Positions 26,498 to 58,439 of a DNA stretch of 64,000 bases are shown here, in pieces (the stretch's first letter is position 1; each line of letters begins with the position of its first letter). Position numbers and translations under genes: made by a program. The notes under the pieces were generated by a model, which was given only the letters and a program-made list of their open reading frames with translations, had not been told where the DNA came from and did not search any database. This DNA comes from Eubacteriales bacterium (GTDB lineage: Bacteria > Bacillota > Clostridia > Oscillospirales > CAG-272), in assembly GCA_045587445.1 (NCBI GenBank), contig JAZNCH010000002.1:35506-99505 (forward strand), given 5' to 3'.

Positions 26498-26533
26498 CAA
26501 GCCTTTTCCAATTGGGGAAAGGCTTGTTTTTTT
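26498..26533 (+). terminator. intrinsic terminator after the solute-binding lipoprotein gene
   Basis: The stem caagccttttcc/gg(gg)aaaggcttg is followed by T7. Confidence 0.8.
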
Positions 26534-26770
26534 GCCTCTATGCATTTATTAAAACTACCCCAAAAGCCTTTTTTACAATCACTTTTATGTAAAATTTATC
26601 ATTTTATCTATACTTTTGTTGAACAAAAAATATTTATTTGGCTTAACAAACCAACTTTTTGGTCAATAATTGTATACACGCAAAAAAATGCCCCTATTAC
26701 TTTTATGAAAATCGGGTGATAAAATATAGTACAAAAAACTTTTTATATATTACGGAAAGCAGGTAATACA

Positions 26771-34308: not shown

Positions 34309-34337
34309 CCTCCTCTTTTAAAGAGGAGGTTTTTTTA
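34309..34337 (+). terminator. intrinsic terminator after the MBL hydrolase gene
   Basis: The stem cctcctcttt/aagaggagg is followed by T7. Confidence 0.85.
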
Positions 34338-34341
34338 TCCC

Positions 34342-34400
34342 CCTACTTTCTTTAAGGAAGAAAGTAGGCAAAGAACCTTGAATAGCCGGTTTGTGCAAAC
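34342..34400 (-). repeat. dispersed repeat E1 (hairpin CCTACTTTCTT-N5-AAGAAAGTAGG + GCAAAGAACCTTGAAT + GTTTGTRCAAAC)
   Basis: The same composite occurs at 44057-44118 (+), 47215-47270 (-) and 48733-48791 (+). The hairpin alone occurs at 53831-53857. Confidence 0.85.
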
Positions 34401-34565
34401 ATAGAGCCTCGCCCTACAGGAGTGGTAGCACACGAAGTATGACGGAGATGGCTTTTAAGGAAGAAAGTAGGCAAAGAACCTTGAATAGCCAGTTTGTGCA
34501 AACATAGAGCCTCGCCCTACAGGAGTGGCAGCACACGAAGTATGACGGAGATGGCTTTTAAGGAA
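34352..34565. repeat. tandem direct repeat, 103-bp unit x 2 plus 8 bp
   Basis: Units 34352-34454 and 34455-34557 differ at 2 positions (G/A at 34389/34491, corrected by alignment, and T/C in gtggTagc/gtggCagc). The next 8 nt, ttaaggaa, restart the unit. Confidence 0.95.
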
Positions 34566-37183: not shown

Positions 37184-37228
37184 AAAAACCCCACTAAAAG
37201 AAGTAAATTTCTTTTAGTGGGGTTTTTT
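37184..37228. terminator. bidirectional terminator between the wHTH-LicC gene and spoIIE
   Basis: A 14-bp stem, ccccactaaaagaa/ttcttttagtgggg, is flanked by A5 and T6. Confidence 0.85.
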
Positions 37229-39602
37229 ATATTTCGTTTACCCTAATTATTCCCACGCTTATGTCATCGCTTCTGGTACTGTTTTCAAGAGCGTTATACA
37301 ATATCTTGTCAGCCATTTTTTTCAGGTCATTCTCCCAAGAATACGTTAAAATATTGCTGACACGCACGGTATCTTCCGTTGACTGTCCCACTCCGTCGCT
37401 TACCATTACGATAACGTCGCCATTCTTTAGTTCAAATTTTACCTCCTCGGCGTTTATTTCTTTTGTTATACCAACAGGCATTGTATTTGATGCTATTCTG
37501 AAAAGCTTGTCCCCCCTTAACACAAATGAAGCAACAGCACCACTTTTTATGAAACTCGCATATCCGTTAAGCAAGTCTATTTCAAGCAGGTCAACGGTAG
37601 AGAAACACTCGGTATTCTTACTTCTTATGAAGTTATTGAGCATTTCCATAGCAACCGGCTTGCTGTTTCCCGCCGCAAGCATTTTTTTCAGAAATATTCC
37701 GCATAGACGCGACGTTAACGCCGCCTCTCTCCCGCTTCCCATACCATCGCTTATCAAAGAATAGAAGTAGTCGTTTCCGTTTTCAAACATACAGACGAGG
37801 TCGCCACACATTTTTTCATTTTCCTTTGTGTTTGACGAGGCGGCGCACTCGACGGAAAAACGTCTTGCAGATTCAAGAGTCATTGTTACGTAGTCCCCCT
37901 CTACCTCAAAAGAGGGAGTATCAAACTTTGCCTCACATATATTTTCAAAACATTCTCTTATTTCATTTGCCGAAAGCTTCATAGCGGCAAGTTCAACACC
38001 GTTGGCTACCACAGTTAGTTTTCTTTTGCCGTAGGCACAAATATTACGCGCAGAAAACTTCATATATTTTATCGCTTCGGCTAACTTTTTCTTTATAGAT
38101 TCGCGGGGCAAAAATTCGCTATAATTTGCTTTTACTTCGGCTGAAAGCAGATGCGCCATTGCCTCGTAATCCATAGCGAAGACCTCTGTTCTGTTTTGTC
38201 TTATAAGATTTTCAAGAAACTGTGCGTGTCCGTCGTTTATTTTTTCAATAATGTTACTCATATTGCGGCACCGTTCTCTCATATACTCCTCGACGTCAGC
38301 CGATTCCGCATATCCTTTGTTGTGTAACCCCTTAGCTATTTTGGAGAATACGTCTTGCGTAGACGAATATTCTCTCTCCCAACAAATATTTCTGTAAAAA
38401 CACTTCGGGCAGTACTTGTCGCATACCTCGTCGCATATTTTTCGGGTGTCGATAAGTCCCGGACGTCTTGTTCTGTCGCTTAACGTATAAAAGACTTTTG
38501 ACAAATCGGAAAATGCCTCCGACAAATCTTCAAATCTTCTTTCAGTATCTCTTTGCCTTTTTTCAGCAAGCATTGCTGATATATCCGCATCATCGGTAGG
38601 ATTTAATCCGTCGCTGTATATTTTCAGTTTGGGCAGCCAAGAAAAACGCGCAAATGGAAAGAATAGAATACAAGCGCACAAAAGTTCGGGCGCATATAAC
38701 GTCAAACTGTTCCACCCATCGACGTAAATAGAACAAACGATGCCGACAAAACAAGCTACGGAAACAGCCGCAGCAGCACCGATTTGCCATAGAATACCTG
38801 CCGCCATACCGACAAGTGCCATTACCGGAGACAAAGCGGTGTTACAGATTAAACCGAATACAAGTCCGTATATACCGCCACGCATTGCTCCCGCAGTTTT
38901 TGATATGTACAACGTTAATATTGCCGTTACTGTAAGGCAAAGCCCGAAGCCGTAGACGTAAATATCTTTTATTGCAAGTAAGATAGCACAGAGCAGAGTA
39001 ATAAGACCTATTTCTCGTTTTATGCTGTATTTATATTTTTCATTAAGCCAAAATTCGTAAAAAAATATGAGTATAGGCACAGTAGCGACCTCAAACAGTC
39101 CCCCAAATATGTCATAGTATAAAAATCCGAATGACGCTGCCCTGTATACACTTATAAGTAACGATGCGCTGAACCCCTCAATAAGCCTGTAACCCACACC
39201 TTCACCGTATAGCTCAAAATTCTTTTCTTCCCGCCCAAACGTTCTGTATACTAACACTCTTGCGAGGAATAACGCAGTATAGATAAGGAATAAAGGTATA
39301 GCAAGTCCTGTTCTTTCGGTTGCCGCCGATATGGCTAAGCCTATGTAAATAAACCCGACGTATCTTTTTGCCGAGCAAAGATATGCCGTCCCCAACGGTA
39401 TAGCAGAATAGGCTAACGCCATTGAACCGAATAGGTGCCCGAGAATAATGTTTCCGATTACGTACCCCGCTTTTTTTATAAGGTCGGGTAGATTGTCGAT
39501 TATCTCTTCCTTGGTTTTTGGCAAATTCTCAAAATATATCCCTATATATTCCCCAAAAAGCTGTTTTACCCTTTTTTTTGTTTCGCTTTTTTTGCCGTCC
39601 AT
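37227..39602 (-). CDS. spoIIE: stage II sporulation protein E (PP2C phosphatase)
   Basis: A polytopic N-terminal membrane domain precedes a C-terminal PP2C domain (LISDGMGSGREAA ... VMVSDGV). ATG 39602 is preceded by GGAGG. Confidence 0.85.
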   Translation of the reverse strand: MDGKKSETKKRVKQLFGEYIGIYFENLPKTKEEIIDNLPDLIKKAGYVIGNIILGHLFGSMALAYSAIPLGTAYLCSAKRYVGFIYIGLAISAATERTGLAIPLFLIYTALFLARVLVYRTFGREEKNFELYGEGVGYRLIEGFSASLLISVYRAASFGFLYYDIFGGLFEVATVPILIFFYEFWLNEKYKYSIKREIGLITLLCAILLAIKDIYVYGFGLCLTVTAILTLYISKTAGAMRGGIYGLVFGLICNTALSPVMALVGMAAGILWQIGAAAAVSVACFVGIVCSIYVDGWNSLTLYAPELLCACILFFPFARFSWLPKLKIYSDGLNPTDDADISAMLAEKRQRDTERRFEDLSEAFSDLSKVFYTLSDRTRRPGLIDTRKICDEVCDKYCPKCFYRNICWEREYSSTQDVFSKIAKGLHNKGYAESADVEEYMRERCRNMSNIIEKINDGHAQFLENLIRQNRTEVFAMDYEAMAHLLSAEVKANYSEFLPRESIKKKLAEAIKYMKFSARNICAYGKRKLTVVANGVELAAMKLSANEIRECFENICEAKFDTPSFEVEGDYVTMTLESARRFSVECAASSNTKENEKMCGDLVCMFENGNDYFYSLISDGMGSGREAALTSRLCGIFLKKMLAAGNSKPVAMEMLNNFIRSKNTECFSTVDLLEIDLLNGYASFIKSGAVASFVLRGDKLFRIASNTMPVGITKEINAEEVKFELKNGDVIVMVSDGVGQSTEDTVRVSNILTYSWENDLKKMADKILYNALENSTRSDDISVGIIRVNEI

Positions 39603-39954
39603 TATTTTTCCTCCGTATTTTAGTAAATGCATTTTACATCAAGGGAGAAGAATAGTTTGTCGCGGTTTGTATAGCGTATAATATTTTATTTTGACTGAGA
39701 AGAAGAAAAAAAGAAATATTGCCTTATTTCCTGAATATTTCGTGTTGTTTTTAAGGTTATTAGCAAACGCGCCGTCGTTTATTGGCATACGGTTTTGCAA
39801 AAACATTTTTATGTCAAGGGTAATATTATAGTATTGAAGGACATATAATTTTGACGTTTTTTTCCAAGCGTAAAATTGATGTTTTTTCTAAATTCGGTGA
39901 TTAACAAACCGAAAATTAGGGCAAAACTATTTTTGCAAAGAAGTAATTAAAAAA

Positions 39955-40371: not shown

Positions 40372-40581
40372 TGCCTATAGTCTCTTGCATTTTATAATGT
40401 TTACAAAATAAACACTATAAATAAAAGCTCCCCTCTATGCATTTATAAAAAGAATGCACTGACCAAGGAATTTTAATAAGTACACAGAGGTGAGGGTGTA
40501 TTTCTAAAATACACCTTGTATTTTGTTATAGTTTAGGGTAAAATATTGTTACTATATTATTATTTTCGGAGATTTTTTAAT

Positions 40582-41523
40582 ATGAAAACAAAAAATCCGT
40601 TTGAAAATTCCGACACTAACAAACGATACTATACATACGATTGTTACCTGAAACGCCGTTTCGGTAAAAAGTGCGTTAAAATAGCACTTGACGGCGGCTT
40701 CACTTGCCCCAATATCGACGGTACAATATCTTACGGCGGCTGTATCTTCTGCTCCGAAAAGGGAAGCGGAGACCACACCCCGCCTTGCAATATCCCTCTT
40801 AACGAACAGTTTGAATTGGGTAAAAAACTTATCGAAAACAAGTGGAACGACGTCTTCTATATCCCTTATTTTCAAGCACATACCAATACTTATGCTCCGT
40901 TATACGTACTAAAACAAAAATTTGAACAGGCGTTGGCTTTGCCCAACACGGTAGGACTCAGCATATCCACCCGCCCCGACTGTCTCGAAGACAACGTAGT
41001 TGATTATCTCGCCGAGCTTTCTCTAAAAACATATCTCACCGTCGAGCTTGGACTTCAATCGGCAAATGATAAAACCCTCTCCCTAATCAACAGAGGTCAT
41101 TCTTACGCTCAATTTGTAGACGGCTTTAACAAACTTAAATCAAAAAACATCAACGTCTGTATACACATAATAAACGGATTACCCGGCGAAACATACGAAG
41201 ATATGATGCATACTGCACGTTGCGTCGCCGGTCTTTCCCCTCACGCATTAAAAATTCATCTGCTCTATATACTGAAAAACACTCCCTTAGCCACTATGTA
41301 TGAAAGGGGCGAATTTGATTCCCTGACACGTGATGAATACGTAAAATTAGTCTGCGACCAGCTCGAAATTTTGCCCAAAGACATTGTCATTGAACGAGTT
41401 ACGGGCGACGGTGTAAGAAAAAACCTTATCGCACCCCTCTGGAGTATCAAAAAAACTATCGTAACAAACGAAATCGACAAAGAATTGGTAAAAAGGGGAA
41501 CTTTTCAAGGTTTTTTGTGCTAA
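40582..41523 (+). CDS. radical SAM protein, TIGR01212 (YhcC-like) family
   Basis: ATG 40582 gives MKTKNPF.... RYYTYDCYLKRRFGKKCVKIALDGGFTCPNIDGT...GGCIFC is the family N-terminus. Confidence 0.8.
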   Translation: MKTKNPFENSDTNKRYYTYDCYLKRRFGKKCVKIALDGGFTCPNIDGTISYGGCIFCSEKGSGDHTPPCNIPLNEQFELGKKLIENKWNDVFYIPYFQAHTNTYAPLYVLKQKFEQALALPNTVGLSISTRPDCLEDNVVDYLAELSLKTYLTVELGLQSANDKTLSLINRGHSYAQFVDGFNKLKSKNINVCIHIINGLPGETYEDMMHTARCVAGLSPHALKIHLLYILKNTPLATMYERGEFDSLTRDEYVKLVCDQLEILPKDIVIERVTGDGVRKNLIAPLWSIKKTIVTNEIDKELVKRGTFQGFLC

Positions 41524-41710: not shown

Positions 41711-43774
41711 ATGGGAAAAGTTCAGACACAAGACATCAGAAACATTGTATTACTCGGTCATGGCGGTTGCGGTAAAACGTCAATTGCTGAGGCTGCATTA
41801 TATTTAACAAAAGCAACCGACAGACTCGGAAAGCCCTCCGACGGCAATACCGTATGCGACTATGACCCCGAAGAAATAAAGAGAGGATTTTCACTTTCAG
41901 CAGCTATGGCTCCTGTAATGTGGAACGATACAAAGATTAACTTTATAGACACACCCGGATACCTTGATTTTGAAGGTGAAGTTGTTCAGGCAATAAGAGT
42001 TGCTGACAGTGCTCTTATTTCTGTAGATGCAAAAGCAGGTGTTGAAGTAGGTACAAAGCTTGCTTGGGACAACGCTACCGAAGCGGGAATTCCGAAAGCG
42101 TTCTTTATAAACAAATTTGACGACAAAGAAGCTAATTTTGACAACGTATTCAATCAGTTAAAAGAAACGTTTGGAAACTTGGTATGTCCTCTTATCATAC
42201 CTGTTGAAACAAATTCTAACCGCTTTGTTCATTTAGCTACTATGAAAGAGCTTATTTATGCTCCCGACGGTACGTTTACCGAGAGCGATATATCTGCAGA
42301 AGACGGAGCTGTTGCTGAAAAATATCACGAAGCTCTTATGGAATCCGTAGCCGAAACAAGCGACGAGCTTATGGAAAAATACTTTGCAGGCGAAGAAATT
42401 TCAAAGGCAGAAGTACTTGAAGCTATTAAAAACGGTCTTCTTGCGGGAACAATCGCCCCCATTATTTGCGGAAGCGCAGTTAAGCTTTGGGGTATAGCAT
42501 CCTTGCTTAACGTATCTCTTGCATCTTTCCCCTCATTTACAAACCACGAATACGAAAGAGTTATAGAAAACGGCGAAGAATCGCAAGTTGAAATTGATGT
42601 TAACGGCACAACAAGCCTCTTCGTATTTAAGACTGTTTCCGACCCATTCGTTGGTAAGATGTCATTCTTCAAGGTTATGAACGGTGAATTGTGCCGCGAT
42701 ATGACTCTTAAGAATCTCCGCACCGAAGGAACGGAAAAATTTGCTCACTTCTACGTTATGAAGGGTAAGAAGCAGACCGAAGTTGACACACTCTGCTGCG
42801 GTGATATTGGTATGATTCCCAAGCTTTCGGGAACAGAAACAAACGATACGCTTTCTGTAGGCAACGTTCTTCCTTACGCTCCCACAGTATATCCCGAATC
42901 CGTATTTACTATGGCATTCTCGCCCAAGGCTAAGGGTGATGAAGATAAGATTTCACAGGGTATTAACAGACTCCTCGAAGAAGATAAAACCCTTAAATAT
43001 GAAAACAACACCGAAGTTAAGCAGATACTCATCTCGGGTCTCGGCGATATTCACCTTGACGTAGTTATATCAAAGCTTAAGTCCAGATACAACACCGACG
43101 TTGAAATGTCCAAGCCCAAGATTGCTTACAGAGAAACAATCAAGAAGAAAGTTCAGGTTGAAGGTAAGCATAAAAAGCAGTCAGGCGGTAGCGGTCAGTA
43201 CGGACACGTTAAGATTACTTTTGCTCCCGGCGAGGATCTCGGTCTTACGTTTACACAGAGCGTTGTAGGCGGTAACGTACCGAAAAACTACTATCCCGCA
43301 GTCGAAAAGGGTCTTCTTGAAGCTATGCAAAAGGGTGTACTTGCAGGATTCCCCGTAGTTAACCTTGCGGCCGACCTGTTCGACGGTTCATATCACCCTG
43401 TTGACTCCAACGAAATTTCCTTTAAACTTGCAGCTATTCTTGCATATAAAGCAGGTCTCGCACAGGCAGGTCCCGTTATTCTCGAGCCAGTAGGTCTTCT
43501 TAAAGTTAGAATTCCCACCGATATGATGGGCGACGTTATCGGCGATATAAACAAGAGAAGAGGCAGAATCCTCGGTATGAACGCCGATGAATCCAAGAAG
43601 GGCTATTCGATAGTTGAAGCAGAAGTTCCGAAATCAGAAATGCTTGATTACGCGATTATTATGCGTGCTATCTCGGGAGGTCTCGGAAGATATACCTTTG
43701 AATTTGTTCGTTACGAAGAAGTTCCCGGTATGGTTTCTCAGAAGATTATCGAAGCGGCTCAAAAAGCTGAATAA
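41711..43774 (+). CDS. elongation factor G-like translational GTPase (paralogue type)
   Basis: 687 aa with G1 GHGGCGKTS, DTPG and NKFD. The EF-G domain II-V architecture is present, but the gene is not in the str operon context. Confidence 0.8.
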   Translation: MGKVQTQDIRNIVLLGHGGCGKTSIAEAALYLTKATDRLGKPSDGNTVCDYDPEEIKRGFSLSAAMAPVMWNDTKINFIDTPGYLDFEGEVVQAIRVADSALISVDAKAGVEVGTKLAWDNATEAGIPKAFFINKFDDKEANFDNVFNQLKETFGNLVCPLIIPVETNSNRFVHLATMKELIYAPDGTFTESDISAEDGAVAEKYHEALMESVAETSDELMEKYFAGEEISKAEVLEAIKNGLLAGTIAPIICGSAVKLWGIASLLNVSLASFPSFTNHEYERVIENGEESQVEIDVNGTTSLFVFKTVSDPFVGKMSFFKVMNGELCRDMTLKNLRTEGTEKFAHFYVMKGKKQTEVDTLCCGDIGMIPKLSGTETNDTLSVGNVLPYAPTVYPESVFTMAFSPKAKGDEDKISQGINRLLEEDKTLKYENNTEVKQILISGLGDIHLDVVISKLKSRYNTDVEMSKPKIAYRETIKKKVQVEGKHKKQSGGSGQYGHVKITFAPGEDLGLTFTQSVVGGNVPKNYYPAVEKGLLEAMQKGVLAGFPVVNLAADLFDGSYHPVDSNEISFKLAAILAYKAGLAQAGPVILEPVGLLKVRIPTDMMGDVIGDINKRRGRILGMNADESKKGYSIVEAEVPKSEMLDYAIIMRAISGGLGRYTFEFVRYEEVPGMVSQKIIEAAQKAE

Positions 43775-43784
43775 TATTATATTT

Positions 43785-43826
43785 AAACCTAAAAGGAAAC
43801 TCCGAAAAGAGTTTCCTTTTAGGTTT
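43785..43826 (+). terminator. strong hairpin/terminator after the EF-G-like gene
   Basis: An 18-bp perfect stem, aaacctaaaaggaaactc/gagtttccttttaggttt, is followed by gttgttt. Confidence 0.75.
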
Positions 43827-43863
43827 GTTGTTTATAATTTTCAGGGCATTCCCTGAAACCCAC

Positions 43864-43909
43864 AAGGGGCGTTTTTTCAAAAACGCCCCTTGACCCCCAA
43901 AAACTTTAA
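43864..43909 (-). repeat. dispersed repeat E3 copy
   Basis: The hairpin aaggggcgttttt-tc-aaaaacgcccctt is followed by gacccccaaaaacttta. Confidence 0.75.
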
Positions 43910-43930
43910 TAAAGGAAATTAGTGTAGGAA

Positions 43931-43950
43931 TATTGTTTGTACAAACAATA
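43931..43950. repeat. perfect 20-bp palindrome TATTGTTTGTACAAACAATA
   Basis: Read directly from the sequence. A 14-bp relative, GGTTTGTACAAACC, lies at 44056-44069. Confidence 0.9.
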
Positions 43951-43959
43951 ATTAGTCGC

Positions 43960-43996
43960 ACAGACCAAGAGAGGCAAGTTCTTTGCCAAGCTTTCT
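43960..43996 (+). repeat. dispersed repeat E2 (ACAGACCAAGAGAGGCAAGTTCTTTGCCAAGCTTTCT)
   Basis: The identical 37-mer occurs at 53778-53814. An inverted copy lies at 48670-48710. Confidence 0.9.
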
Positions 43997-44056
43997 TTAA
44001 ATAATACCCCTTCCACCATCTTCGATGGTCCCCCTCCCCCAATGGGGAGGCTTGGG

Positions 44057-44118
44057 GTTTGTACAAACCAGAGATTCAAGGTTTCTTTGCTTACTTTCTT
44101 TCCTTAAAAGAAAGTAAG
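44057..44118 (+). repeat. dispersed repeat E1 copy
   Basis: Reads gtttgtacaaaccagagattcaaggtttctttgcttactttctttccttaaaagaaagtaag. Confidence 0.85.
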
Positions 44119-44195
44119 TGTTCATACTATATTCATATATATTATGTAAAATACACTTAAGACAGAATGCTAAAAAAGAAAAGAGTAAATAAAAA

Positions 44196-45569
44196 ATGAG
44201 TACAATATCCGCAATATCCACCGCTTTTGGTAAGGGCGGTATAGCTGTAATAAGGCTATCGGGCGAGGGTGCTATTGATATTTTAAATAAGGTATTTAAA
44301 CCGGTGGGGAATAAGTCTATAGAAGATTTTGCCCCCAATACACTCGTATATGGTAATATCTATAAAGAAGATAAGCTTATTGACAGAGGAATGGCCGTTT
44401 ATTTTAAAGCACCTAAGTCATATACAGGCGAAGATTCAGCAGAAATACACTGTCATGGCGGTATATTGCTGTCCCAAATGGTGCTTGAAGCAACGTTTTT
44501 AGCCGGTGCAACACCCGCAGGTCCCGGAGAATTCACGCAGAGGGCATTTTTGTCGGGTAAAATGGGACTTTCTCAAGCTGAGGCGGTAATTGACCTTATC
44601 GATGCACAAAGTGAATCTAAGGCCGCTTTGGCGGCTTCTCAGGCTGACGGCCGTTTGTCAAAAAGAGTAAACGAGTTATATTCCGAGCTTATGACGATAG
44701 TAAGCAGTATTTATGCTTATATCGACTATCCCGACGAGGATTTGACCGATATATCGATAGACGATATGAAATCGGGACTCGACGGCATAAGAAAAAGCCT
44801 TGAAGACCTCAAAAAGACCTACAAGACGGGTAGAGCTGTATGTGAGGGCCTGAATACCGTTATTGCGGGTAAGCCAAATACGGGTAAATCTTCACTTTTG
44901 AATATGCTTCTCGGCGAAGACAGAGCAATAGTTACTCCCATTGCGGGAACAACGCGTGATACCGTTGAAGAGACTGTATCTGCAGGTCAAGTTTTGCTCA
45001 GACTTTGCGATACGGCGGGTATACATACCGCCACCGACGAGGTTGAAGAGATAGGCGTAAAGAGAGCTATTGCAAAGGTGAAGAACGCAGAGCTTGTTTT
45101 GGCTGTTTTTGACGGCTCTGCTGAGCTTGACGGCGAAGATATGGAAGTTATAAAACAACTGAAAACCTTAGAAGATAAGACTATTATCGTAGTGCTTAAT
45201 AAAAACGACGTTGGAACAAAGCTCGACAAAAAACAGTTTGAGACTATAACCCCATACGTTGTGGATATTTCCGCAAAAGAAAATAACGGAAAAACAGAGC
45301 TGGTTGAACTTATTGAGCAGATATATATCGACGGTGAGATAGAATATTCGTCTGCATGTGTTGTAACGAACGCCCGACAATTTGCATCTATTGTAAATTC
45401 AGTAAACCATATTAATAACGCACTTTCCGCCTTAAACGAAGGCTTTACACAGGATATAGCGGGAATGGAGCTTGAACTTACACTGTCAGAACTCGGAAAC
45501 CTCGACGGAAGAAAGGTTACCGAAGACGTGGTACACAACATATTCGGCAGATTTTGCGTAGGAAAATAA
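44196..45569 (+). CDS. mnmE: tRNA modification GTPase MnmE/TrmE
   Basis: 457 aa. The N-terminus is ISTAFGKGGIAVIRLSG, the G domain carries GKPNTGKSSLLN, DTAG and NKND, and the protein ends in CVGK. Confidence 0.95.
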   Translation: MSTISAISTAFGKGGIAVIRLSGEGAIDILNKVFKPVGNKSIEDFAPNTLVYGNIYKEDKLIDRGMAVYFKAPKSYTGEDSAEIHCHGGILLSQMVLEATFLAGATPAGPGEFTQRAFLSGKMGLSQAEAVIDLIDAQSESKAALAASQADGRLSKRVNELYSELMTIVSSIYAYIDYPDEDLTDISIDDMKSGLDGIRKSLEDLKKTYKTGRAVCEGLNTVIAGKPNTGKSSLLNMLLGEDRAIVTPIAGTTRDTVEETVSAGQVLLRLCDTAGIHTATDEVEEIGVKRAIAKVKNAELVLAVFDGSAELDGEDMEVIKQLKTLEDKTIIVVLNKNDVGTKLDKKQFETITPYVVDISAKENNGKTELVELIEQIYIDGEIEYSSACVVTNARQFASIVNSVNHINNALSALNEGFTQDIAGMELELTLSELGNLDGRKVTEDVVHNIFGRFCVGK

Positions 45570-45580
45570 ATACCAAAACA

Positions 45581-45605
45581 AAAAATCCTCTGACGAGGAT
45601 TTTTT
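45581..45605. terminator. bidirectional terminator between mnmE and ogg
   Basis: Reads aaaaaTCCTCtgacGAGGAttttt. Confidence 0.8.
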
Positions 45606-46443
45606 ATTTATTATATCTTTCATAATAGAACAAATACTGCTGAATCATACCGGCATAGGCACCGAGGTTAGTTAAATCAAGTCCGTCGGGATAATACTTT
45701 TCGAGAACTCTTTTTACCCAAACGTCAACAGGGAAAGCATCAGTTTTATTAAAACCGAAAAGCAGGGCACACGAAGCTACTTTAAGTCCTACGCCTTTTA
45801 TTTGCATAAGATATTCCAAGGCTTCGTCTGTTGTCATTTTGTCAACAGCTAAAAGGTTAATTTTCCCAGTTACGACCTTTTCTGCAGCATCGTAAATATA
45901 CTTGGCTCTGAAGCCGGTTTTCAGCTCAAATATCCTGTCAACTCCGGCTCTGTAAAGAGCCTCGGCAGTGGGAAAAGCATAATGTGTTTCGTCGATTTTT
46001 TCGCCGAATTCTCGGCTCATATTTTCGATTATTTTCTTAATTCTCGGGATATTGTTGTTTTGTGAAATAATAAACGAACAAAGGGCTTCCCAACCGTCTT
46101 GACGTAATATACGGATACCACTTCCGTATTCAATTGCTTTCTTTATAGTATCGTCATCGTTAAGCCTTGTTATAATGTCGCTGTCAACCGCCGAGTAGTC
46201 CTCGTCAAGTGCAAGGTATCGGCAAAACCTTTCATCAAACTCCGACTTTGTTATACCGTATATTTTAACCGAATCACTGTTCTCTTGCTCAAAGTAAAGC
46301 ACTTTGCCGTAAGCGATGCCCTCGATTCCGTTACCGACAGAGTCAAAACGAAAGCATTGACCGCAGTCAAATATCTTGCTTATGGAAAAACGGTCGAGAC
46401 CATTTATTTCTATGTATTTTTCTTTTTCTGTTACGCTAAACAT
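45604..46443 (-). CDS. ogg: HhH-GPD DNA glycosylase, clostridial 8-oxoguanine glycosylase (Ogg)-like
   Basis: 279 aa with N-terminal FDCGQCFRF and an HhH-GPD region (IKGVGLKVASCALLFG...DAFPVDVWV). Confidence 0.7.
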   Translation of the reverse strand: MFSVTEKEKYIEINGLDRFSISKIFDCGQCFRFDSVGNGIEGIAYGKVLYFEQENSDSVKIYGITKSEFDERFCRYLALDEDYSAVDSDIITRLNDDDTIKKAIEYGSGIRILRQDGWEALCSFIISQNNNIPRIKKIIENMSREFGEKIDETHYAFPTAEALYRAGVDRIFELKTGFRAKYIYDAAEKVVTGKINLLAVDKMTTDEALEYLMQIKGVGLKVASCALLFGFNKTDAFPVDVWVKRVLEKYYPDGLDLTNLGAYAGMIQQYLFYYERYNK

Positions 46444-46529: not shown

Positions 46530-47210
46530 ATGGAAAAAATATATACAATACCCGTCAACGAGGCTTTTGATGCCTGTATGGAAGATAAAACAAAGGGCTG
46601 TCCTTTCTGCGAAATGTTCAGAAAGGTTCAAGAAAACGAGCTTGACCTTATTCTCGGCGCATCTATGATGGAGCCCGACGTTCGTATCAAGACAAACGAA
46701 ATGGGCTTCTGCGATAAGCACCTTTCTATGATGATGAAACGAAAGAACAGACTCGGTCTTGCTCTTATGCTCGAAAGCCACTTGGCTCACGTAGCAAAAG
46801 AATCAAAAGGCTTCGGAGCTATTAAAAAGGTCGAAAAGATTAACGACAGCTGTTACATCTGCTCCCGTATCGACTACCATATCGAAAGAATGTTCGAGAC
46901 TGCCGCTTGGCTTTACGATACCGACAGAGCCTTTGAAGAAAAGATTAAGAATCAATCATATTTCTGCTTGAACCACTACCATAAGTTTTTGACTGCCGGT
47001 AAAAATGAACTTAACAGAAAGAAATATGCCGACTTTGAACGTCTTGTTTCAAAGGTTAATGAGACATACCTCACAGAGCTAAGTGCAGACGTAAGCTGGT
47101 TCTGTAAAAAGTTTGACTATAGGTACGATGAAGAGCCTTGGGGTAACGCGAAGAACGCCCCCGAAAGAGCTATTAAATTCTTGACCGGTAGCTTGACAGA
47201 CGTTGAATAA
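46530..47210 (+). CDS. conserved hypothetical Cys/His-rich protein (two CxxC...CxxH modules)
   Basis: 226 aa. CPFC(x31)CDKH is repeated as CYIC(x39)CLNH. Both modules look like zinc-binding motifs. Confidence 0.6.
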   Translation: MEKIYTIPVNEAFDACMEDKTKGCPFCEMFRKVQENELDLILGASMMEPDVRIKTNEMGFCDKHLSMMMKRKNRLGLALMLESHLAHVAKESKGFGAIKKVEKINDSCYICSRIDYHIERMFETAAWLYDTDRAFEEKIKNQSYFCLNHYHKFLTAGKNELNRKKYADFERLVSKVNETYLTELSADVSWFCKKFDYRYDEEPWGNAKNAPERAIKFLTGSLTDVE

Positions 47211-47214
47211 CCCC

Positions 47215-47270
47215 CCTACTTTCTTTGAGGAAGAAAGTAGGCAAAGACCCTTGAATAATTGGTCTGTGCC
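47215..47270 (-). repeat. dispersed repeat E1 copy
   Basis: Reads cctactttctttgaggaagaaagtaggcaaagacccttgaataattggtctgtgcc. Confidence 0.85.
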
Positions 47271-47337
47271 ACTTTTTATCATTTGTGCGAACAATTTATC
47301 TTAATATTAAAGCGGAGGGGAATCCCCTACGCTTTTT

Positions 47338-47378
47338 AAAGTTTTTGAGGGTTTGGGAACTTTTTTCAAAAAGTTCCC
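47338..47378 (+). repeat. dispersed repeat E3 copy (also the likely terminator of the Cys-rich gene)
   Basis: Reads aaagtttttgagggtttGGGAACtttttt-c-aaaaaGTTCCC, followed by ttattttttt. Confidence 0.75.
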
Positions 47379-47386
47379 TTATTTTT

Positions 47387-48565
47387 TTACACTTCCGGCT
47401 CTATTTTTATTGTCTGGAGTGATTCCATTGCTTCTTTTTCGAGGGCTTCTATATCAATCTTCGATTCTTGTTCAAGCACACGGAACATTTCGGGGCGAGT
47501 CTTGGGGTGTTTAGGAGTAAACACTGTACAACAATCTTCGTATGGAAGTATTGAAGTCTCAAACGTATTAATCTTTCTTGAAATAGTAATAATCTCTTCT
47601 TTATCCATACCGATACAAGGTCTAAAAACGGGCATATTTACAACAGAGTCGGTAACGTTCAGCGCATCTAAAGTCTGACTTGCAACCTGACCTAAGCTTT
47701 CACCTGTAATAAGTGCACGGCACTTATTTCTGTTTGCAACCTTTTCTGCAAGACGCATCATAAAACGACGGAGCAACAGAGTAAAATATTCCTCGTCGCA
47801 AAGTCGTCTCAATTCCTCTTGGATATGAGTAAGAGAAATAACGTGCACGTAGATATTACCCGAATATACGGAAACAAGTCTTGCAAGCTGCAATACCTTT
47901 TCTTTTGCTCTCTCGCTTGTATAGGGGAAGCTTTCAAAGTGAACTGCATCAAGATTAAGTCCCCTCTTCGACATCATATAACCTGCAACAGGGCTGTCAA
48001 TACCACCCGAAAGCAAAAGCATAGCCTTACCGTTTGAGCCTACGGGCATACCGCCGGCACCCTTAAAGGCACCTGCGTGAACATAAGCGTTGGTTTCACG
48101 AAGCTCAATTCTAACGGTTATTTCAGGGTTATCCATACTAACTTTAAGTCTCGGCATAACCTCAAGCACAGCACCGCCTACCTCTGCCGCAATCTGCGGA
48201 GAGGTCAAGGGAAATTTCTTGTCAGAGCGTCTTGCTTCAGCCTTAAAGCTCTTTTTACCTTCAAGATATTGGGGCAGATATTCTGCCGCCTTTTTCTTTA
48301 TATCATCAATATTCTTTTCGCAAACAACGGCACGGCTAACCGAAACAAAGCCAAATACTTTAAGAGCTGCCTCAAATGCACCGTCAATATCGGCAAAATC
48401 GTCTAACGGCTCAACGTATGTTGTTGACTGTGATGCGGAAACCTTAAAATTACCGTAAGGCTTGATACATTCCTTAAGTCTCTTTGCCAAAAGGTCCTCA
48501 AACCACTTTCTGTTAAGTCCCTTTAGTACGAGTTCGCCCTGTTTACACAAAAGTATTTCTTTCAT
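47387..48565 (-). CDS. thiI: tRNA 4-thiouridine(8) synthase ThiI (no rhodanese domain)
   Basis: 392 aa. A THUMP region is followed by the PP-loop SGGIDSPVAGYMM. Confidence 0.9.
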   Translation of the reverse strand: MKEILLCKQGELVLKGLNRKWFEDLLAKRLKECIKPYGNFKVSASQSTTYVEPLDDFADIDGAFEAALKVFGFVSVSRAVVCEKNIDDIKKKAAEYLPQYLEGKKSFKAEARRSDKKFPLTSPQIAAEVGGAVLEVMPRLKVSMDNPEITVRIELRETNAYVHAGAFKGAGGMPVGSNGKAMLLLSGGIDSPVAGYMMSKRGLNLDAVHFESFPYTSERAKEKVLQLARLVSVYSGNIYVHVISLTHIQEELRRLCDEEYFTLLLRRFMMRLAEKVANRNKCRALITGESLGQVASQTLDALNVTDSVVNMPVFRPCIGMDKEEIITISRKINTFETSILPYEDCCTVFTPKHPKTRPEMFRVLEQESKIDIEALEKEAMESLQTIKIEPEV

Positions 48566-48669
48566 TTCTCATTTTCCTTTTTTCTTTATAATGTCTTATT
48601 GATTTTACACCAAATAAATCTTTATGTCAAGAAGATAAAATCTTCCTTAAAATAAACTTACTTTCTTCC

Positions 48670-48710
48670 CGCTTTCTTTCGTAGAAAGCTTGGCAAAGAA
48701 CTTGCCTCTC
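48670..48710 (-). repeat. dispersed repeat E2 copy (inverted)
   Basis: cgctttctttcgtagaaagcttggcaaagaacttgcctctc is the reverse complement of 53786-53826 with one mismatch. Confidence 0.9.
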
Positions 48711-48732
48711 GGGTTTCTACAAATTATTATTA

Positions 48733-48791
48733 GTAGTACAGACCCATTATTAAAAGGTTCTTTGCTTACTTTCTTCCTTAAAGAAAGTAGG
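48733..48791 (+). repeat. dispersed repeat E1 copy
   Basis: Reads gtagtacagacccattattaaaaggttctttgcttactttcttccttaaagaaagtagg. Confidence 0.85.
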
Positions 48792-48822
48792 GCGACCGTT
48801 TTGGCCGCCCTTAAGTTCTTGT

Positions 48823-49473
48823 TTATTTATTCTTTTTAACTTTGTCTTCGAGGCAGATAACAATTTTTCTGTTATCGTCGGAACCGATAGAGTATGTTGA
48901 CACGCCCTCAATATCCTGAATTTCGGAATGAATAATTCTTCTTTCGTAGGGGTTCATAGGTTCAAGAGTCATATTTCTGCCGTTTTTGCGAACTCTTGCA
49001 GCCATTCTTCTTGCGAGAGTTCTGAGAGTTTCTTCTCTCTTAGCTCTGTAGTTTTCAATATCTACGGTAATCTTTGAGTAATCGTCTTTGTCTTCGTCGC
49101 CCTTGTTTGCAGTAAGGTTTGCAAGGTACTGCACAGCATCAAGAGTCTCACCATGATGACCGATAAGCATACCTGCCGCCTCACCCTCAAGAGTAATCTT
49201 AAGATCCTTGCCGTTTACTACTTCATTCTTAACCTCAACGTCAAGCTCCAGATTTTTTACAAGAGTAGTAACGAAGTCAACAGCCTTTATACCTGCACTC
49301 ATTTCGCAGTATACTCTAACCTTAGCGGGAGTCTCACCAAAACCGAGAAATCCCTTTTTGGCGTTTTCTATAACTTCATACTGTGCTTTTTCGGCAACAA
49401 CGTTAAGTTCTTTTAAGCCTTTTTCTATAGCATCTTCAACAGTCTTTCCGTAAACTATAACTTCACGTATCAT
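48823..49473 (-). CDS. jag: Jag/KhpB RNA-binding protein (KH + R3H)
   Basis: 216 aa with LIGHHGETLDAVQYL (KH) and ERRIIHSEI (R3H). It lies downstream of yidC. Confidence 0.9.
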   Translation of the reverse strand: MIREVIVYGKTVEDAIEKGLKELNVVAEKAQYEVIENAKKGFLGFGETPAKVRVYCEMSAGIKAVDFVTTLVKNLELDVEVKNEVVNGKDLKITLEGEAAGMLIGHHGETLDAVQYLANLTANKGDEDKDDYSKITVDIENYRAKREETLRTLARRMAARVRKNGRNMTLEPMNPYERRIIHSEIQDIEGVSTYSIGSDDNRKIVICLEDKVKKNK

Positions 49474-49514: not shown

Positions 49515-50657
49515 TTATTCGTCTTTCTTTTTCGTGTCGTCTTCTTGTACGTCAGACACTTCAATCATACCCGCGAGTCCATTTTTGGGAGCTTCTGACT
49601 TTTTCTTCTTTTCGGGTTCGGGAGCAATATAGTCCTCTTCATCAATTCTGTGAAGTGAACGTACCTTTTTCTTTTCGCCCGTACCGCTTGAAGATTTCTT
49701 TGTTTTTGACTTACCGTTCATTTCTCTTTCAGCATTCTTATAATCCTCTTCGGTAAACTTAGGCAAGGGCATAACCTTTGCCAAGATAATCTGCTGAATA
49801 GTACCGAAAATATTATTGAACATCCAATAAATACCGATAACCGCAGGAACGATAAACGTGATATATACGCTCATCAAGGGCATCATCCAGTCCATCATTT
49901 TTGTGGAACAGCCGGCAGCGGGGTCGTTATTTTGTACGCCTTCGTTGGGGTTGTACATAAACTTCTTGTTTATCTTCATAGACAAAAAGCTTATCACAAA
50001 CGTCAAAACGGGAACCAACCATAAAATAGTAATTGTATTAATAGCGGGAGTTTCTGCAAGATTAAGCCCGAAAATATTGAAGTTCGGGAGCTCTTCTACA
50101 GATTTAACGTACTCGCTTATTTGCGAGCTGAATTCGTTGAAATTATTTTTAATAATATCAACGAGCTGAATTTGGGACATAGACTTAATAGCCTTTTCAA
50201 CAGTTTGTCCTTCAGTCAAAGTTTTTGAAACAATTTCTTTAAGAGCATCGCTCTCGGTTATTGCCTTAACAACGTCTTTTGGAATACGGCAAAGGAATTC
50301 CAATGGTCTGATAATTACCTGATAAAGACCGAGCAATATAGGAAGCTGAATAAGAAGAGGCAAACAACCACCCATTGGGTTGTAGTTCTCTCTGGTATAG
50401 AGATCCATTATTTCGTTCTGCATCTTTTGCTGAGTCGGCTGATCGTTTCTTCCCGCATACTTTTTGCGGATAGCCATTTCTTTTGGTCTCAGCGTAGCCT
50501 GCTTAATGGAATTTTTTTGCTGCTTTATGCTCAAAGGCAGCATTGCAATTTTTACTACAATTGCAAACAAAATAAGACCTACGAGATAATTTTTTCCGCC
50601 GATTATATAACAAAATTCGACGACGTAGGCAAACAGTTTAAGAATTGCGTCTATCAA
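49515..50657 (-). CDS. yidC: membrane protein insertase YidC/SpoIIIJ
   Basis: TTG start after GGAG. The motif GGCLPLLIQLPILLGLY is present, followed by a long charged C-terminal tail. Confidence 0.9.
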   Translation of the reverse strand: MIDAILKLFAYVVEFCYIIGGKNYLVGLILFAIVVKIAMLPLSIKQQKNSIKQATLRPKEMAIRKKYAGRNDQPTQQKMQNEIMDLYTRENYNPMGGCLPLLIQLPILLGLYQVIIRPLEFLCRIPKDVVKAITESDALKEIVSKTLTEGQTVEKAIKSMSQIQLVDIIKNNFNEFSSQISEYVKSVEELPNFNIFGLNLAETPAINTITILWLVPVLTFVISFLSMKINKKFMYNPNEGVQNNDPAAGCSTKMMDWMMPLMSVYITFIVPAVIGIYWMFNNIFGTIQQIILAKVMPLPKFTEEDYKNAEREMNGKSKTKKSSSGTGEKKKVRSLHRIDEEDYIAPEPEKKKKSEAPKNGLAGMIEVSDVQEDDTKKKDE

Positions 50658-51675: not shown

Positions 51676-51704
51676 TTGCATTATATATATATATATGCTA
51701 TAAT
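51676..51704 (+). promoter_or_regulatory. candidate dnaA promoter TTGCAT-17-TATAAT with a (TA)n spacer
   Basis: The hexamers are separated by tatatatatatatatgc. It lies 68 bp upstream of the dnaA ATG. Confidence 0.5.
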
Positions 51705-51771
51705 AAATTATATATATGCAAATTCGAGCGTTTTTCATATTTTTTATTTTTTTGAAAGGAAAAGCTTATTT

Positions 51772-53199
51772 ATGCAATTTTTAGACGACCTTTGGGCAAA
51801 CGTTGTTAAGAATATGAGACAGACATATGCCGAAGGCTTTATTGAATTATGGTTCAACGATTTGAAGCTTGAGGTTTTGAATAATACAGACGCCGTTTTG
51901 GTTAACAGTAGCGACCTTAAGTGTAAAATTTTAAATGATAAACACCTTCCTACTATAAAGCAGTATCTTGAAGAACTTATCGGCTATCCGGTAAACGTTA
52001 CCATTCTTTCAAGACAAAACGGCGATCCCGACCTTACTCCGTATATAGAGGGAAGAGCTGCCGAAAAAACTGAAAGTAAGAGCGAAAAGATAACGACGGT
52101 GTCAGAGCTTACCTTTGACGAAAGTGATACCGACGACGTTACTTTTGAGCAGGCGAGCAATATTTTTCCGCCCTATCATACTCAGTATACTTTCGATAAC
52201 TTTATTGTAGGTAACTCAAACAAGTTTGCTTACGAGGCTTGTATTTCGGTCTGCAATAACCCAGCTACCCATTTTAACCCATTGTTTATTTACGGACAAA
52301 GCGGTCTCGGAAAGACACACCTACTCTACGCGATAAATAACTTTATCTTAAGCAAGAACAAAAAAGCGAGCATCGTGTACGTTAAGGGTGAAGATTTTGC
52401 AAGTCAGCTTATTGAAAACATAAGCAAGAAGTCAAACATTACTTTCAGAGAAAAGTTTAAAAATAAATTTAGAAAAACGGATTTTCTTCTTATAGACGAT
52501 ATTCACTTTATTGCAGGTAAAGAAGCGACACAGGAAGAGATATTTCATACGTTCAACGCTCTTTACGATGCGGGTAAACAGATTATTATGACCAGTGATC
52601 GTCCGCCGAAAGAGATTAAGACACTTGAAGACAGACTCAGAACACGCTTTGAAGACGGTCTTATAGTTGACATTCAACCGCCGGATTATGAACTCAGAAC
52701 TGCTATAATTAAAGATAAGGCTAAAAAATTAGGTGTTACATTCCCCCCCGAAGTATTGAACTATTTATCAGAAAATCTTAGAAACAATATACGTCAGATA
52801 GAAGGTGCAGTTAAGACACTTGCGGCTCATTCTTTCCTTAAAGGAGCAAAGCTTGACCTTGACCTCGCGAAAGAATGTATATCCGTTATCGTTTCAAATA
52901 ACGAACCCGTTGACGTTACTATTGAGAGAATTTTTGAAAAGGTTTCAAAGAAATATAATATCTCCGAAAATGATTTGAAAGGCTCAAAGAGAAATCAAGA
53001 GGTAGCCAATGCAAGACATATCTGCATCTATATTATAAAAAATATGACAGACCTGTCCTTGAAGAAAATAGGCAATATTTTTTCAAGAGACCATTCGACC
53101 GTTAAATCTTCTTTGAATAAGATTGAGACTGATATTAAAGAAAACTCGGTACTCGAAATTGAGATAAACGAGCTTATGGAAGAAATAAGAAAAAAATAA
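51772..53199 (+). CDS. dnaA: chromosomal replication initiator protein DnaA
   Basis: ATG 51772 gives MQFLDDLWANV.... Walker A is GQSGLGKTHLL, and the C-terminal DNA-binding helix reads FSRDHSTVKSSL. Confidence 0.95.
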   Translation: MQFLDDLWANVVKNMRQTYAEGFIELWFNDLKLEVLNNTDAVLVNSSDLKCKILNDKHLPTIKQYLEELIGYPVNVTILSRQNGDPDLTPYIEGRAAEKTESKSEKITTVSELTFDESDTDDVTFEQASNIFPPYHTQYTFDNFIVGNSNKFAYEACISVCNNPATHFNPLFIYGQSGLGKTHLLYAINNFILSKNKKASIVYVKGEDFASQLIENISKKSNITFREKFKNKFRKTDFLLIDDIHFIAGKEATQEEIFHTFNALYDAGKQIIMTSDRPPKEIKTLEDRLRTRFEDGLIVDIQPPDYELRTAIIKDKAKKLGVTFPPEVLNYLSENLRNNIRQIEGAVKTLAAHSFLKGAKLDLDLAKECISVIVSNNEPVDVTIERIFEKVSKKYNISENDLKGSKRNQEVANARHICIYIIKNMTDLSLKKIGNIFSRDHSTVKSSLNKIETDIKENSVLEIEINELMEEIRKK

Positions 53200-53575
53200 A
53201 GTCTCCCTATATTTTCCACAGTTGTTGAAAAGGGTGTGGAAAACTTTTTGGTGTAAATAAGCTACTGTTTGTGCTATATTACAGGCAAACTTAACAGAGT
53301 TTTCCACAGTAAAGTTTTCCTATGAAAATTTGTTGAAAAAAGTTGGAAAAAACCTTTATTTTTAATGGTGTTGAAATCCACAAAATTTTCCAACTATTTC
53401 TAACACTTTATCAACAGGGAGAAACAAATAAATTTTTCCCTTAATATGCACACTTTTTAACTTTCCAACATTTTCAACATCACCTACTACAGCTATTACC
53501 ACTACAATATGAATAATATATGTATTATGCATCTAACTTCTCAAATTTTTAAGATGAGACAGAGATGTAGGATTG
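53200..53575. other. oriC: DnaA-box cluster, DnaA-trio-like run and AT-rich unwinding region
   Basis: TTTTCCACA occurs at 53212 and 53300, and TGTGGAAAA at 53235. There are at least 8 one- or two-mismatch variants (53223, 53331, 53342, 53374, 53386, 53408, 53462, 53471). A trio run lies at 53484-53504, followed by an AT-rich stretch at 53505-53575. Confidence 0.8.
53484..53504 (-). promoter_or_regulatory. DnaA-trio-like element (bottom strand TAG TGG TAA TAG CTG TAG TAG)
   Basis: 5 of 7 triplets fit TA[AG]. The run sits directly between the last DnaA-box-like sites and the AT-rich segment. Confidence 0.5.
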
Positions 53576-53753: not shown

Positions 53754-53777
53754 CTACAACTAATTAATAATGTTTAC

Positions 53778-53857
53778 ACAGACCAAGAGAGGCAAGTTCT
53801 TTGCCAAGCTTTCTGCGAAAGAAAGCGGTGCCTACTTTCTTCCTTAAAGAAAGTAGG
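53778..53857 (+). repeat. dispersed repeat E2 plus the E1-type hairpin
   Basis: Reads acagaccaagagaggcaagttctttgccaagctttctgcgaaagaaagcggtgCCTACTTTCTTccttaAAGAAAGTAGG. It ends 49 bp before the dnaN ATG. Confidence 0.9.
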
Positions 53858-53905
53858 AGGAAAAAGAAAAAAATAATACTTATATAAAAAGAAAGGAAAA
53901 TAATT

Positions 53906-56423: not shown

Positions 56424-58439
<2,016 letters not shown>

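Follow-up and report, generated by a model that had tools for sequence, protein, structure and literature searches.

Hairpin repeats between the EF-G and mnmE genes of a Clostridia genome belong to a previously undescribed, probably non-autonomous interspersed family

The genes for EF-G (41711-43774) and MnmE (44196-45569, with its ATG at 44196), both assigned by NCBIfam scan, are separated by a 421-nt spacer within a 64,000-nt stretch of contig JAZNCH010000002.1 from an Eubacteriales bacterium (hereafter the window; 39.5% GC). The spacer folds far beyond chance: as RNA, its plus strand reaches a minimum free energy of -136.6 kcal/mol against -83.0 +/- 5.9 for shuffled sequences (z = -9.1), its minus strand gives z = -8.7, and none of 100 dinucleotide shuffles folded equally well. 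Every hairpin listed in a preliminary description of this DNA is present, within a few nucleotides of where it had been placed. The claim that the spacer consists almost entirely of such modules went too far, as about 235 of the 421 nt derive from the repeat family described here. When compared with 117 related loci from other genomes, family sequence covers 43935-44120 and, more weakly, 43863-43912, while the terminator of the EF-G gene and 44121-44195 are unique.

The preliminary description had distinguished three recurrent modules, E1, E2 and E3. Once the copies in the window are aligned in one orientation, E1 and E2 prove to be sub-types of a single unit and not separate modules. The unit opens with a terminal hairpin, CCTACTTTCTT-taagg-AAGAAAGTAGG or CCGCTTTCT-ttcgc-AGAAAGC(TT)GG, followed by (G)GCAAAGAAC, a linker of 10-12 nt and the motif GGTYTGTRC, with which an inner hairpin or palindrome begins. 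The CTTTCT/AGAAAG upper stem of the terminal hairpin is invariant, the (G)GCAAAGAAC core is single-stranded and likewise invariant, and the inner hairpins are specific to each lineage. The second module, E3, is rarer and combines a hairpin that has a T-run/A-run inside it with the tail C(C/T)C(C)AAAAACTTT. Its copies at 47380-47336 of the window (reverse complement) and in related locus L072 have stems that are altered yet complementary (GGGAAC/GTTCCC, GGAACC/GGTTC), and the tail is conserved.

A profile of the hairpin plus core finds 8 copies of the unit in the window; with the divergent copy at 44.1 kb the count rises to 9, at 5 sites, all of them intergenic. Self-comparison of the window showed that 43959-43996 is identical to 53777-53814 (38/38) and to 48710-48683 (28/28), that the E1 copy shares 82-92% identity with those at 34.34, 34.45, 47.2 and 48.75 kb, and that 43873-43997 aligns with 47372-47231. 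At 34326-34565 (plus strand), just past the terminator of a gene for an MBL-fold hydrolase, the unit is found with a tandem duplication behind it (34351-34565, period 103, 2.1 copies) which, at 98% identity, is recent. A complete composite element lies at 47212-47380 (plus strand), with terminal hairpin, core, inner part and reverse-complement E3 hairpin, and aligns with 44012-43863 on the opposite strand. It fills the whole spacer between the convergent DUF6062 gene and thiI, from 2 nt past the stop at 47210 to 7 nt before the stop at 47387. Between thiI and jag, two inward-facing units form an inverted doublet (48669-48795) resembling a REPIN (a doublet of repetitive extragenic palindromic, REP, sequences forming one hairpin) or a miniature inverted-repeat transposable element (MITE); its fold is a long hairpin (z = -4.1) that brings GGCAAAGAAC into pairing with the facing GTTCTTTGC, and the same arrangement is seen in L084. 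In the dnaA-dnaN spacer lies a unit (53755-53860, minus strand) whose terminal hairpin is doubled, one being of E1 type and the other of E2 type; it is located 45 nt upstream of dnaN, at a distance of about 340 nt from the cluster of DnaA boxes.

Recurrence at 34.3, 47.2, 48.7 and 53.8 kb is therefore as first described, and only the 56.4-kb site drops out. There, the recF-gyrB spacer (56434-56490) contains the hairpin TTAAGAAACTTTTTT-ac-AAAAAAGTTTCTTAA, whose 16-bp stem has a T-run/A-run inside it, and then GGGGTTTCGGGGCAACGCCCCG; this site shares the architecture of E3 without clear sequence homology. Taken together, the unit occurs as singles, inverted doublets, tandem arrays and E3-capped composites, in keeping with the proposed mosaic of varied combinations and orientations resembling REPs and bacterial interspersed mosaic elements (BIMEs).

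Read along the minus strand, the repeat-derived part of the EF-G/mnmE spacer starts with unit B (44118-44056) and its two-hairpin tail (44050-44015), and continues with a composite formed by unit A (44012-43935), the palindrome and an inverted E3 cap (43909-43863). This two-unit block recurs in L037 and L070. Unit B (the former E1; 44056-44118, minus strand) has the terminal hairpin CTTACTTTCTTT-taagg-AAAGAAAGTAAG, whose arms (44090-44101 and 44107-44118) are complementary at 12/12 positions and which faces mnmE, and then the core CAAAGAAAC, CTTGAATCTCT and GGTTTGTACAAACC (44056-44069). As single-stranded DNA it folds with z = -4.2, and it also matches L063, L104, L084 and L037 at 82-92%. Its 3' tail (44015-44050, minus strand) is made of two small hairpins, ACCATC-ttc-GATGGT (44015-44029) and CCTCCCC-caat-GGGGAGG (44033-44050), and the corresponding positions in L037, L070 and L065 carry CTCCCACTTTGGGGGAG and a second short hairpin.

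Unit A (the former E2; 43935-44012, minus strand) has a decayed terminal hairpin of which one arm is lost and only the AAAGAAAGC arm remains; the TTGGCAAAGAAC core, TTGCCTCTCTT and GGTCTGTGCGAC follow, and then a perfect 20-bp palindrome, TATTGTTTGTACAAACAATA (43931-43950). This palindrome is the inner hairpin of the unit (GGTYTGTRC...GYACARACC type), with equivalents in L053, L064, L070, L076 and L111 and at 44056-44069 of the window. Unit A gives an nhmmer match at 44001-43973 (E = 2.6e-7), and its segment 43971-44004 is matched by about 100 related loci among the matches listed. Module E3 (43863-43909, plus strand), the far terminus of the composite element 44012-43863, consists of the hairpin GGGGCGTTTTT/AAAAACGCCCC, with arms 43863-43876 and 43879-43892 complementary at 14/14 positions, and the tail GACCCCCAAAAACTTT; weak matches to it are found in L092, L003 and L051.

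The other parts of the spacer lie outside the family. The intrinsic terminator of the EF-G gene (43785-43826, plus strand) has arms at 43785-43802 and 43809-43826, complementary at 18/18 positions, a 6-nt loop and a T-rich tail, and is reported by a terminator scan as a 19-pair stem; neither the rest of the window nor the 117 related loci contain a match to its sequence. The small hairpin TTCAGGG-catt-CCCTGAA (43840-43857) does not recur, apart from a single weak match in the related loci. Next to mnmE, the unique AT-rich sequence 44119-44195 (plus strand) has no repeat matches and presumably contains the promoter and 5' untranslated region (UTR) of this gene. The sole promoter-like match, at 44104-44133, agrees at 9/12 positions, which is not above shuffled sequences, and places the -35 hexamer within the unit B hairpin. 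Two minus-strand open reading frames (ORFs) with TTG starts, 43746-44066 and 43997-44338, run antisense across the ends of the EF-G and mnmE genes. They have no Pfam match, and the same repeat in translation ('KVLCQAFFQES') makes spurious ORFs in other genomes, so that both are best explained as artefacts, as was originally proposed. A metagenome scan with MnmE, made for a strain-level comparison of the spacer, gave a best match of 52% identity and no close relatives.

To define the distribution of the family, the pattern AGAAAG-N2-3-GGCAAAGAACYTKS, for which about 4 chance matches were estimated, was run in one scan against a collection of 185,579 genomes and returned at least 117 stretches. 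The L-numbered loci are the 117 related loci, each 8 kb or less, with about 800 kb of flanks; all counts of stems, loops, positions and carriers given below refer to the matches listed. The left hairpin arm, which the pattern does not require, is present in 103 of 119 pattern matches, and the remaining ones are chance matches in coding DNA of unrelated phyla. The true copies, at least 103, come from Pseudoflavonifractor, Flintibacter porci, Gemmiger, Subdoligranulum, Faecalibacterium, Acutalibacter and Ruthenibacterium, and from many metagenome-assembled genomes (MAGs) labelled 'Oscillospiraceae', 'Ruminococcaceae', 'Eubacteriales' or 'Clostridia'. Their genomes, from isolates as well as MAGs, span 37-70% GC; more than 20 have several loci, and several carry at least 5-9 each. 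On this sequence evidence the family spans several families of an order of gut Clostridia and is not confined to one genome. Confinement to the window, which the preliminary description would have taken as a refutation of its mosaic, is contradicted by more than 100 true copies elsewhere.

In high-GC genomes the unit has the canonical form CCGCTTTCTT-gaa-AGAAAGCTTGGCAAAGAACTTT and then a second hairpin, behind which Flintibacter-type genomes show a third, conserved one and a T-run. A search of 2.9 million viral contigs gave a true copy in only one of 7 matches, and the element is apparently chromosomal. On one Flintibacter porci contig 5 loci lie between 48 and 184 kb, with further loci on different contigs.

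The family is previously undescribed, as had been suspected. Rfam 15 in gathering mode found nothing in the window, nor at the element in 18 loci; in permissive mode, applied to the window, the spacer and canonical copies, it returned just generic-hairpin matches far under threshold. Literature searches, which covered two surveys of REPs and their associated tyrosine transposases (RAYTs), gave no paper with the core sequence and no description of such repeats in this clade, and no annotated repeat family matches.

The hairpins are selected, and their stems are kept by compensatory changes of the Watson-Crick type only. The terminal hairpin (hairpin 1, about 27 nt) has an upper stem that never varies and a lower stem that exists as CCG/CGG, CTA/TAG, CTT/AAG, CAG/CTG or GCG/CGC and extends over a mean of 3.50 pairs, more than the 3.05 +/- 0.08 obtained after an exchange of flanks between copies. 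Its loop is free (TGAA, TTCGC, TGTA or TTAAGGA), with TGAA in 73 of 105 copies. Across 24 distinct copies of the canonical form, pairing in hairpin 2 is 100%, with changes on both sides in 3 of 7 pairs (26 cells) and no G-U among 168 cells; none of 500 shuffles matches this. Watson-Crick-only pairing, combined with the presence of copies in both orientations, suggests that the hairpin must form on either strand, or in DNA.

Relative to the nearest gene, by crude ORF calls, sense copies outnumber antisense ones by about 2:1, and the element points with its outer end, the terminal hairpin, towards the neighbouring gene. Among the 55 units that follow an ORF of at least 100 codons, 24 have their invariant stem 3-6 nt past the end of the stop codon, most often 4 nt, so the hairpin starts right at the stop codon. 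Antisense copies lie just upstream of ribosome-binding sites. The stop codons at these junctions (TGA 12, TAA 11, TAG 3) equal background usage, and a TA or TAA insertion target was rejected for this reason. Genes bracketed by two units are ordinary housekeeping genes, according to a Pfam scan of the bracketed ORFs.

The units are multi-copy, are gained or lost at orthologous sites and diversify within genomes. The closest relative among the matches, MAG JAZRUG01 (locus L063), is 88% identical to 21580-26551 of the window over 5 kb. In L063, a block of about 290 nt, bounded by two inward-facing units around a cargo, sits between the stop codon of the orthologue of ORF 19909-21576 and a conserved terminator, and the corresponding site of the window (21577-21600) is empty. 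Sub-families are genome-specific: the 60 nt beyond the core are at least 70% identical in 34.5% of copy pairs within genomes and in 4.3% of pairs between genomes, which points to turnover within genomes. Tandem units with an 86-nt period are found in L065.

The cargo of L063 (6985-7180) holds a hairpin of the GGTCATCCTGAGCGAAGGCAGTG...CTGCCGAAGTCGAAGGATCC type and recurs in L024, L037 and L060, that is, in at least 4 loci of JAZRUG01. It is absent from the window, where only the unit portion of the block finds matches.

The previous analyses lead us to read the spacer, with a probability of about 0.72, as a nest of copies of a non-autonomous interspersed family of REP/BIME/REPIN-like character that occupies intergenic positions in Oscillospiraceae/Ruminococcaceae-type Clostridia. 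Mechanistically, copies would spread as single-stranded DNA hairpins handled in trans by an enzyme of the host or of an insertion sequence (IS), and this enzyme would read the invariant stem and the GGCAAAGAAC tract. We infer that an HUH/Y1 nuclease, either RAYT or IS200-like, is the most likely candidate, because the covarying hairpins at the ends adjoin a single-stranded tract that is invariant and there is no evident target duplication. After insertion, most copies would be co-transcribed and, by analogy with REPs, could block exonucleases or modulate termination right past the stop codon, as hairpins located in 3' UTRs or between cistrons. The spacer itself is ordered as EF-G terminator, composite (44012-43863), further unit (44118-44013) and presumed mnmE promoter region, both elements being antisense to mnmE.

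Several results weigh against this reading. Clustering of flanking ORFs over about 800 kb revealed no protein family that recurs beside the copies, a tblastn search with an approximate IS200 TnpA query reached a best E value of 0.29, and a Pfam scan found no transposase among the ORFs bracketed by opposite units. The comparison of filled and empty sites consists of just one pair, which at 88% identity is too diverged to read exact ends or a target duplication. In addition, the 35-nt core is invariant from 37% to 70% GC, which is unusual for REP-type repeats, as these normally vary from genus to genus; a conserved cellular function, as opposed to pure selfishness, is therefore conceivable, with the limit that part of the invariance is imposed by the search pattern (AGAAAG..GGCAAAGAAC). 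In related searches, no gene for RAYT (a Y1 HUH transposase, encoded in REPIN-RAYT genomes by a single-copy gene that usually has the repeats on its flanks) was found in the 64-kb window or in the 117 loci of 8 kb or less; the window and the flanks of about 800 kb gave no tnpA or tnpB, and no ORF-bearing element or full-length IS with unit ends was seen in the window and the 117 loci, for which coverage is partial.

A more far-reaching proposal, which we regard as tentative and rather doubtful, is that the CTTTCT/AGAAAG hairpin with GGCAAAGAAC could be the recognition site of a conserved, vertically inherited trans-acting protein of Oscillospirales, either an HUH transposase that has been domesticated or a factor with RNA-binding or RNase activity. 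Placement or retention of the elements would bring the start of the hairpin directly to the stop codon or ribosome-binding site of neighbouring genes, where it would tune translation termination or mRNA decay genome-wide. If true, this would be the first REPIN-RAYT-like symbiosis between host and element in Gram-positive gut anaerobes.

The units could instead be functional RNA modules, either cis elements of 3' and 5' UTRs or small RNAs, kept to regulate the neighbouring genes. Each would comprise a 5' hairpin, GGCAAAGAAC as a single-stranded 'seed' or as a tract bound by a protein or RNase, a second hairpin and, in some lineages, a terminator of its own, and a conserved RNA-binding protein or RNase would read them. 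The invariance of the core across 37-70% GC, the covariation of both hairpins, the sense preference of about 2:1 and the hairpins directly past the stop codon in many copies all agree with this idea, as does the Flintibacter/Pseudoflavonifractor unit, where a conserved GTGGGAGTGAC-n6-GTCGCTCCCAC hairpin and T-run follow, like a small RNA gene with its own terminator. However, about one third of the copies are antisense to the nearest gene, and the strict Watson-Crick pairing of hairpin 2 suits a hairpin needed in DNA or on either of the two strands. Also against it are the orthologous sites seen both filled and empty, the inverted doublets and tandem duplications, the decayed copies (unit A, for example) and the genome-specific sub-families, and the neighbouring genes have no common function. 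We therefore consider it unlikely.

Two narrower RNA functions were rejected. On the reverse strand, GTTCTTTG equals the core of the Firmicute boxA, but a boxA/nut-like antitermination site was discarded as the main explanation, given that the copies have both orientations and are mostly found downstream of genes. GGA loops of the CsrA type appear only in the low-GC 'E1' loop (TAAGGA), and this loop is not conserved.

With less support still, the units could be ordinary MITEs, deletion derivatives of a DDE-type IS in which they serve as terminal inverted repeats and are moved by the IS transposase with target-site duplications. The inverted doublets with their hairpin ends outermost (48669-48795, the L063 insert and L084) have the expected layout, and the L063 insert is flanked by TAA...TAA where the empty site of the window has a single TGA, compatible with a TAA/TRA duplication between flanks that are only 88% identical. 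Against this, no full-length IS with unit ends was seen in the loci covered, many copies are single units with just one 'end', the background stop-codon usage at junctions argues against a TA/TAA target, and covarying-hairpin termini are typical of single-strand (HUH) systems and not of DDE transposase ends. All in all, we hold an origin as ordinary MITEs to be distinctly improbable.

In favour of a MITE origin, MITE-like elements do seem to be active in the clade. A second non-coding repeat of about 570 nt, with terminal inverted repeats of about 120 nt and without a conserved ORF, adjoins the 3' hairpin of units in Flintibacter-/Pseudoflavonifractor-type genomes (L050 6111-6682; L059 86-491 and 4484-5045; L067 2100-2630 and 5089-5696; L085 6265-6959; L098 6402-6943; L043 5651-6230). 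It looks like a MITE nesting beside the units. As an autonomous partner of the family it was rejected, since it lacks a conserved ORF and does not occur in the window.

That the hairpins or palindromes are origin-proximal sites for a chromosome-organising or replication protein (ParB/Noc-like or DnaA-associated) is highly improbable: all 5 repeat sites lie within 34-54 kb, around the GC-skew minimum and the dnaA-dnaN spacer, with none in the first 34 kb despite the spacers there, but this clustering of five independent sites is only marginally non-random (P about 0.05, a rough estimate), and copies in other genomes are dispersed along large contigs and on different contigs. The sites of ParB and Noc (parS) are 16-bp palindromes, TGTTNCACGTGAAACA, clustered near oriC. 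Our TGTTTGTACAAACA palindromes loosely recall such sites, but the central bases of TGTTTGTACAAACA and GGTTTGTACAAACC differ from those of parS, the palindrome having GTAC as its inner bases as opposed to CACGTG, and the palindrome is the least conserved part of the unit, the conserved part being the hairpin and GGCAAAGAAC.

Returning to the REP-like reading, the family resembles the REPs and BIMEs of Escherichia coli and other Enterobacteria in being made of short extragenic hairpins, present in many copies and in mosaics of varying order and orientation. Both are located in convergent spacers or in the interval from a stop codon to a terminator, attract spurious ORF calls and are, or here would be, co-transcribed. 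Translation and decay are reportedly affected by some REPs that lie no further than about 15 nt from stop codons, and the Clostridia units likewise abut stop codons. The two differ in that there is no sequence similarity and the host here is a Gram-positive Clostridia member, not one of the Proteobacteria. The unit is also longer (60-120 nt), has an invariant single-stranded tract beside its hairpin, and keeps its core over several families and 37-70% GC, whereas REP classes vary between genera. The REP types Y, Z1 and Z2 and the S, L, r and l linker motifs of BIMEs are not matched, so that the organisation is BIME-like without membership. Hairpin 1 is a short (20-40 nt) imperfect palindrome with many extragenic copies, as is typical of REPs. 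Most REPs are further marked by a GTAG/CGTC head (PMC3733652), and it is on this head that strict REP membership fails. The commonest lower stem is CCG...C(TT)GG (44 of 105 copies), and GTAG, found in 16 of 105, is paired inside the stem of the 'E1' sub-type and is not a free head.

Among Firmicutes (BOX/RUP) or compact genomes, modular hairpin-forming intergenic repeats of 100-300 nt are also known as BOX, RUP and SPRITE in Streptococcus pneumoniae and as Correia elements (CREE) in Neisseria. BOX has the modular structure boxA-boxB(n)-boxC, with variable inner modules like the tandem units found here, and Correia elements equip the genes beside them with promoters, terminators and RNase sites. 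Both RUP and Correia end in defined inverted repeats and show TA duplications, with a known IS relative (for RUP, IS630-Spn1). Such end features are not seen here, there is no sequence similarity to BOX, RUP, SPRITE or Correia, and these are restricted to a species or genus, unlike the Clostridia family.

In the REPIN-RAYT system (Bertels and Rainey 2011, PMC3116915; PMC3337134), inverted doublets likewise fold into one long hairpin, sequence populations are genome-specific, and the elements are apparently chromosomal with no transposase beside most copies; here, singles, tandems and composites are at least as common as doublets. The ends of IS200/IS605 elements and their MITE derivatives (PMC6006769) also place sub-terminal hairpins beside a short conserved single-stranded tract, a possible guide or cleavage sequence. 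Recognition would be strand-specific in both cases, and neither shows an obvious target duplication. The left and right ends of IS200/IS605 are unlike each other, whereas the same unit stands at both ends of the doublets described here.

Interspersed hairpin repeats such as REP, BIME, REPIN, BOX and Correia shape mRNA stability, termination, genome rearrangement and strain typing, and nearly all of the well-studied ones belong to Proteobacteria or a few pathogens. The present family is carried by abundant and medically relevant gut commensals, namely Faecalibacterium, Gemmiger, Pseudoflavonifractor, Flintibacter, Acutalibacter and many uncultured Oscillospirales. Its copies occupy regulatory positions: directly past stop codons, beside ribosome-binding sites and inside the dnaA-dnaN spacer, where oriC probably lies. 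They yield spurious ORF calls, probably cause contig breaks in MAGs and would offer strain-typing markers. The unusually deep conservation raises the question of which protein recognises the unit.

The window as a whole is the replication-origin region of a sporulating Clostridium-type Firmicute. Besides the EF-G and mnmE genes, the NCBIfam scan identified SpoIIE (37227-39632, minus strand), MnmL/YtqA (40546-41523), an Ogg-type glycosylase (45604-46443, minus), ThiI (47387-48565, minus), Jag (48823-49473, minus), YidC (49515-50657, minus), DnaA (51676-53199), DnaN (53906-55039), RecF (55047-56126), GyrB (56520-58439) and GyrA (60159-62630); the ORF of the DUF6062 protein spans 46530-47210. A search for tRNA and tmRNA gave no match. 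The cumulative GC skew has its minimum at about 50-52 kb, and DnaA-box-like sites cluster at 53212-53416 in the dnaA-dnaN spacer (TTTTCCACA three times and TTATCAACA), which therefore probably contains oriC.

Two minor observations concern the surroundings of the repeats. The terminator stem of jag (48796-48822, GGGCGGCC-aaaa-CGGTCGCCC, minus strand) abuts the T-rich arm CTACTTTCTTT of the terminal hairpin of the neighbouring unit and runs directly into it, so that the repeat seems to supply the U-tract of the terminator. The second concerns gene order: mnmE, on the strand of dnaA and with the EF-G gene upstream, is separated from jag-yidC by ogg, the DUF6062 gene and thiI, outside the usual Firmicute order rnpA-yidC-jag-mnmE-mnmG-rsmG, and mnmG and rsmG were not noticed nearby. 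This unusual arrangement suggests a rearrangement of the origin region, and copies of the repeat are found at several of its junctions.

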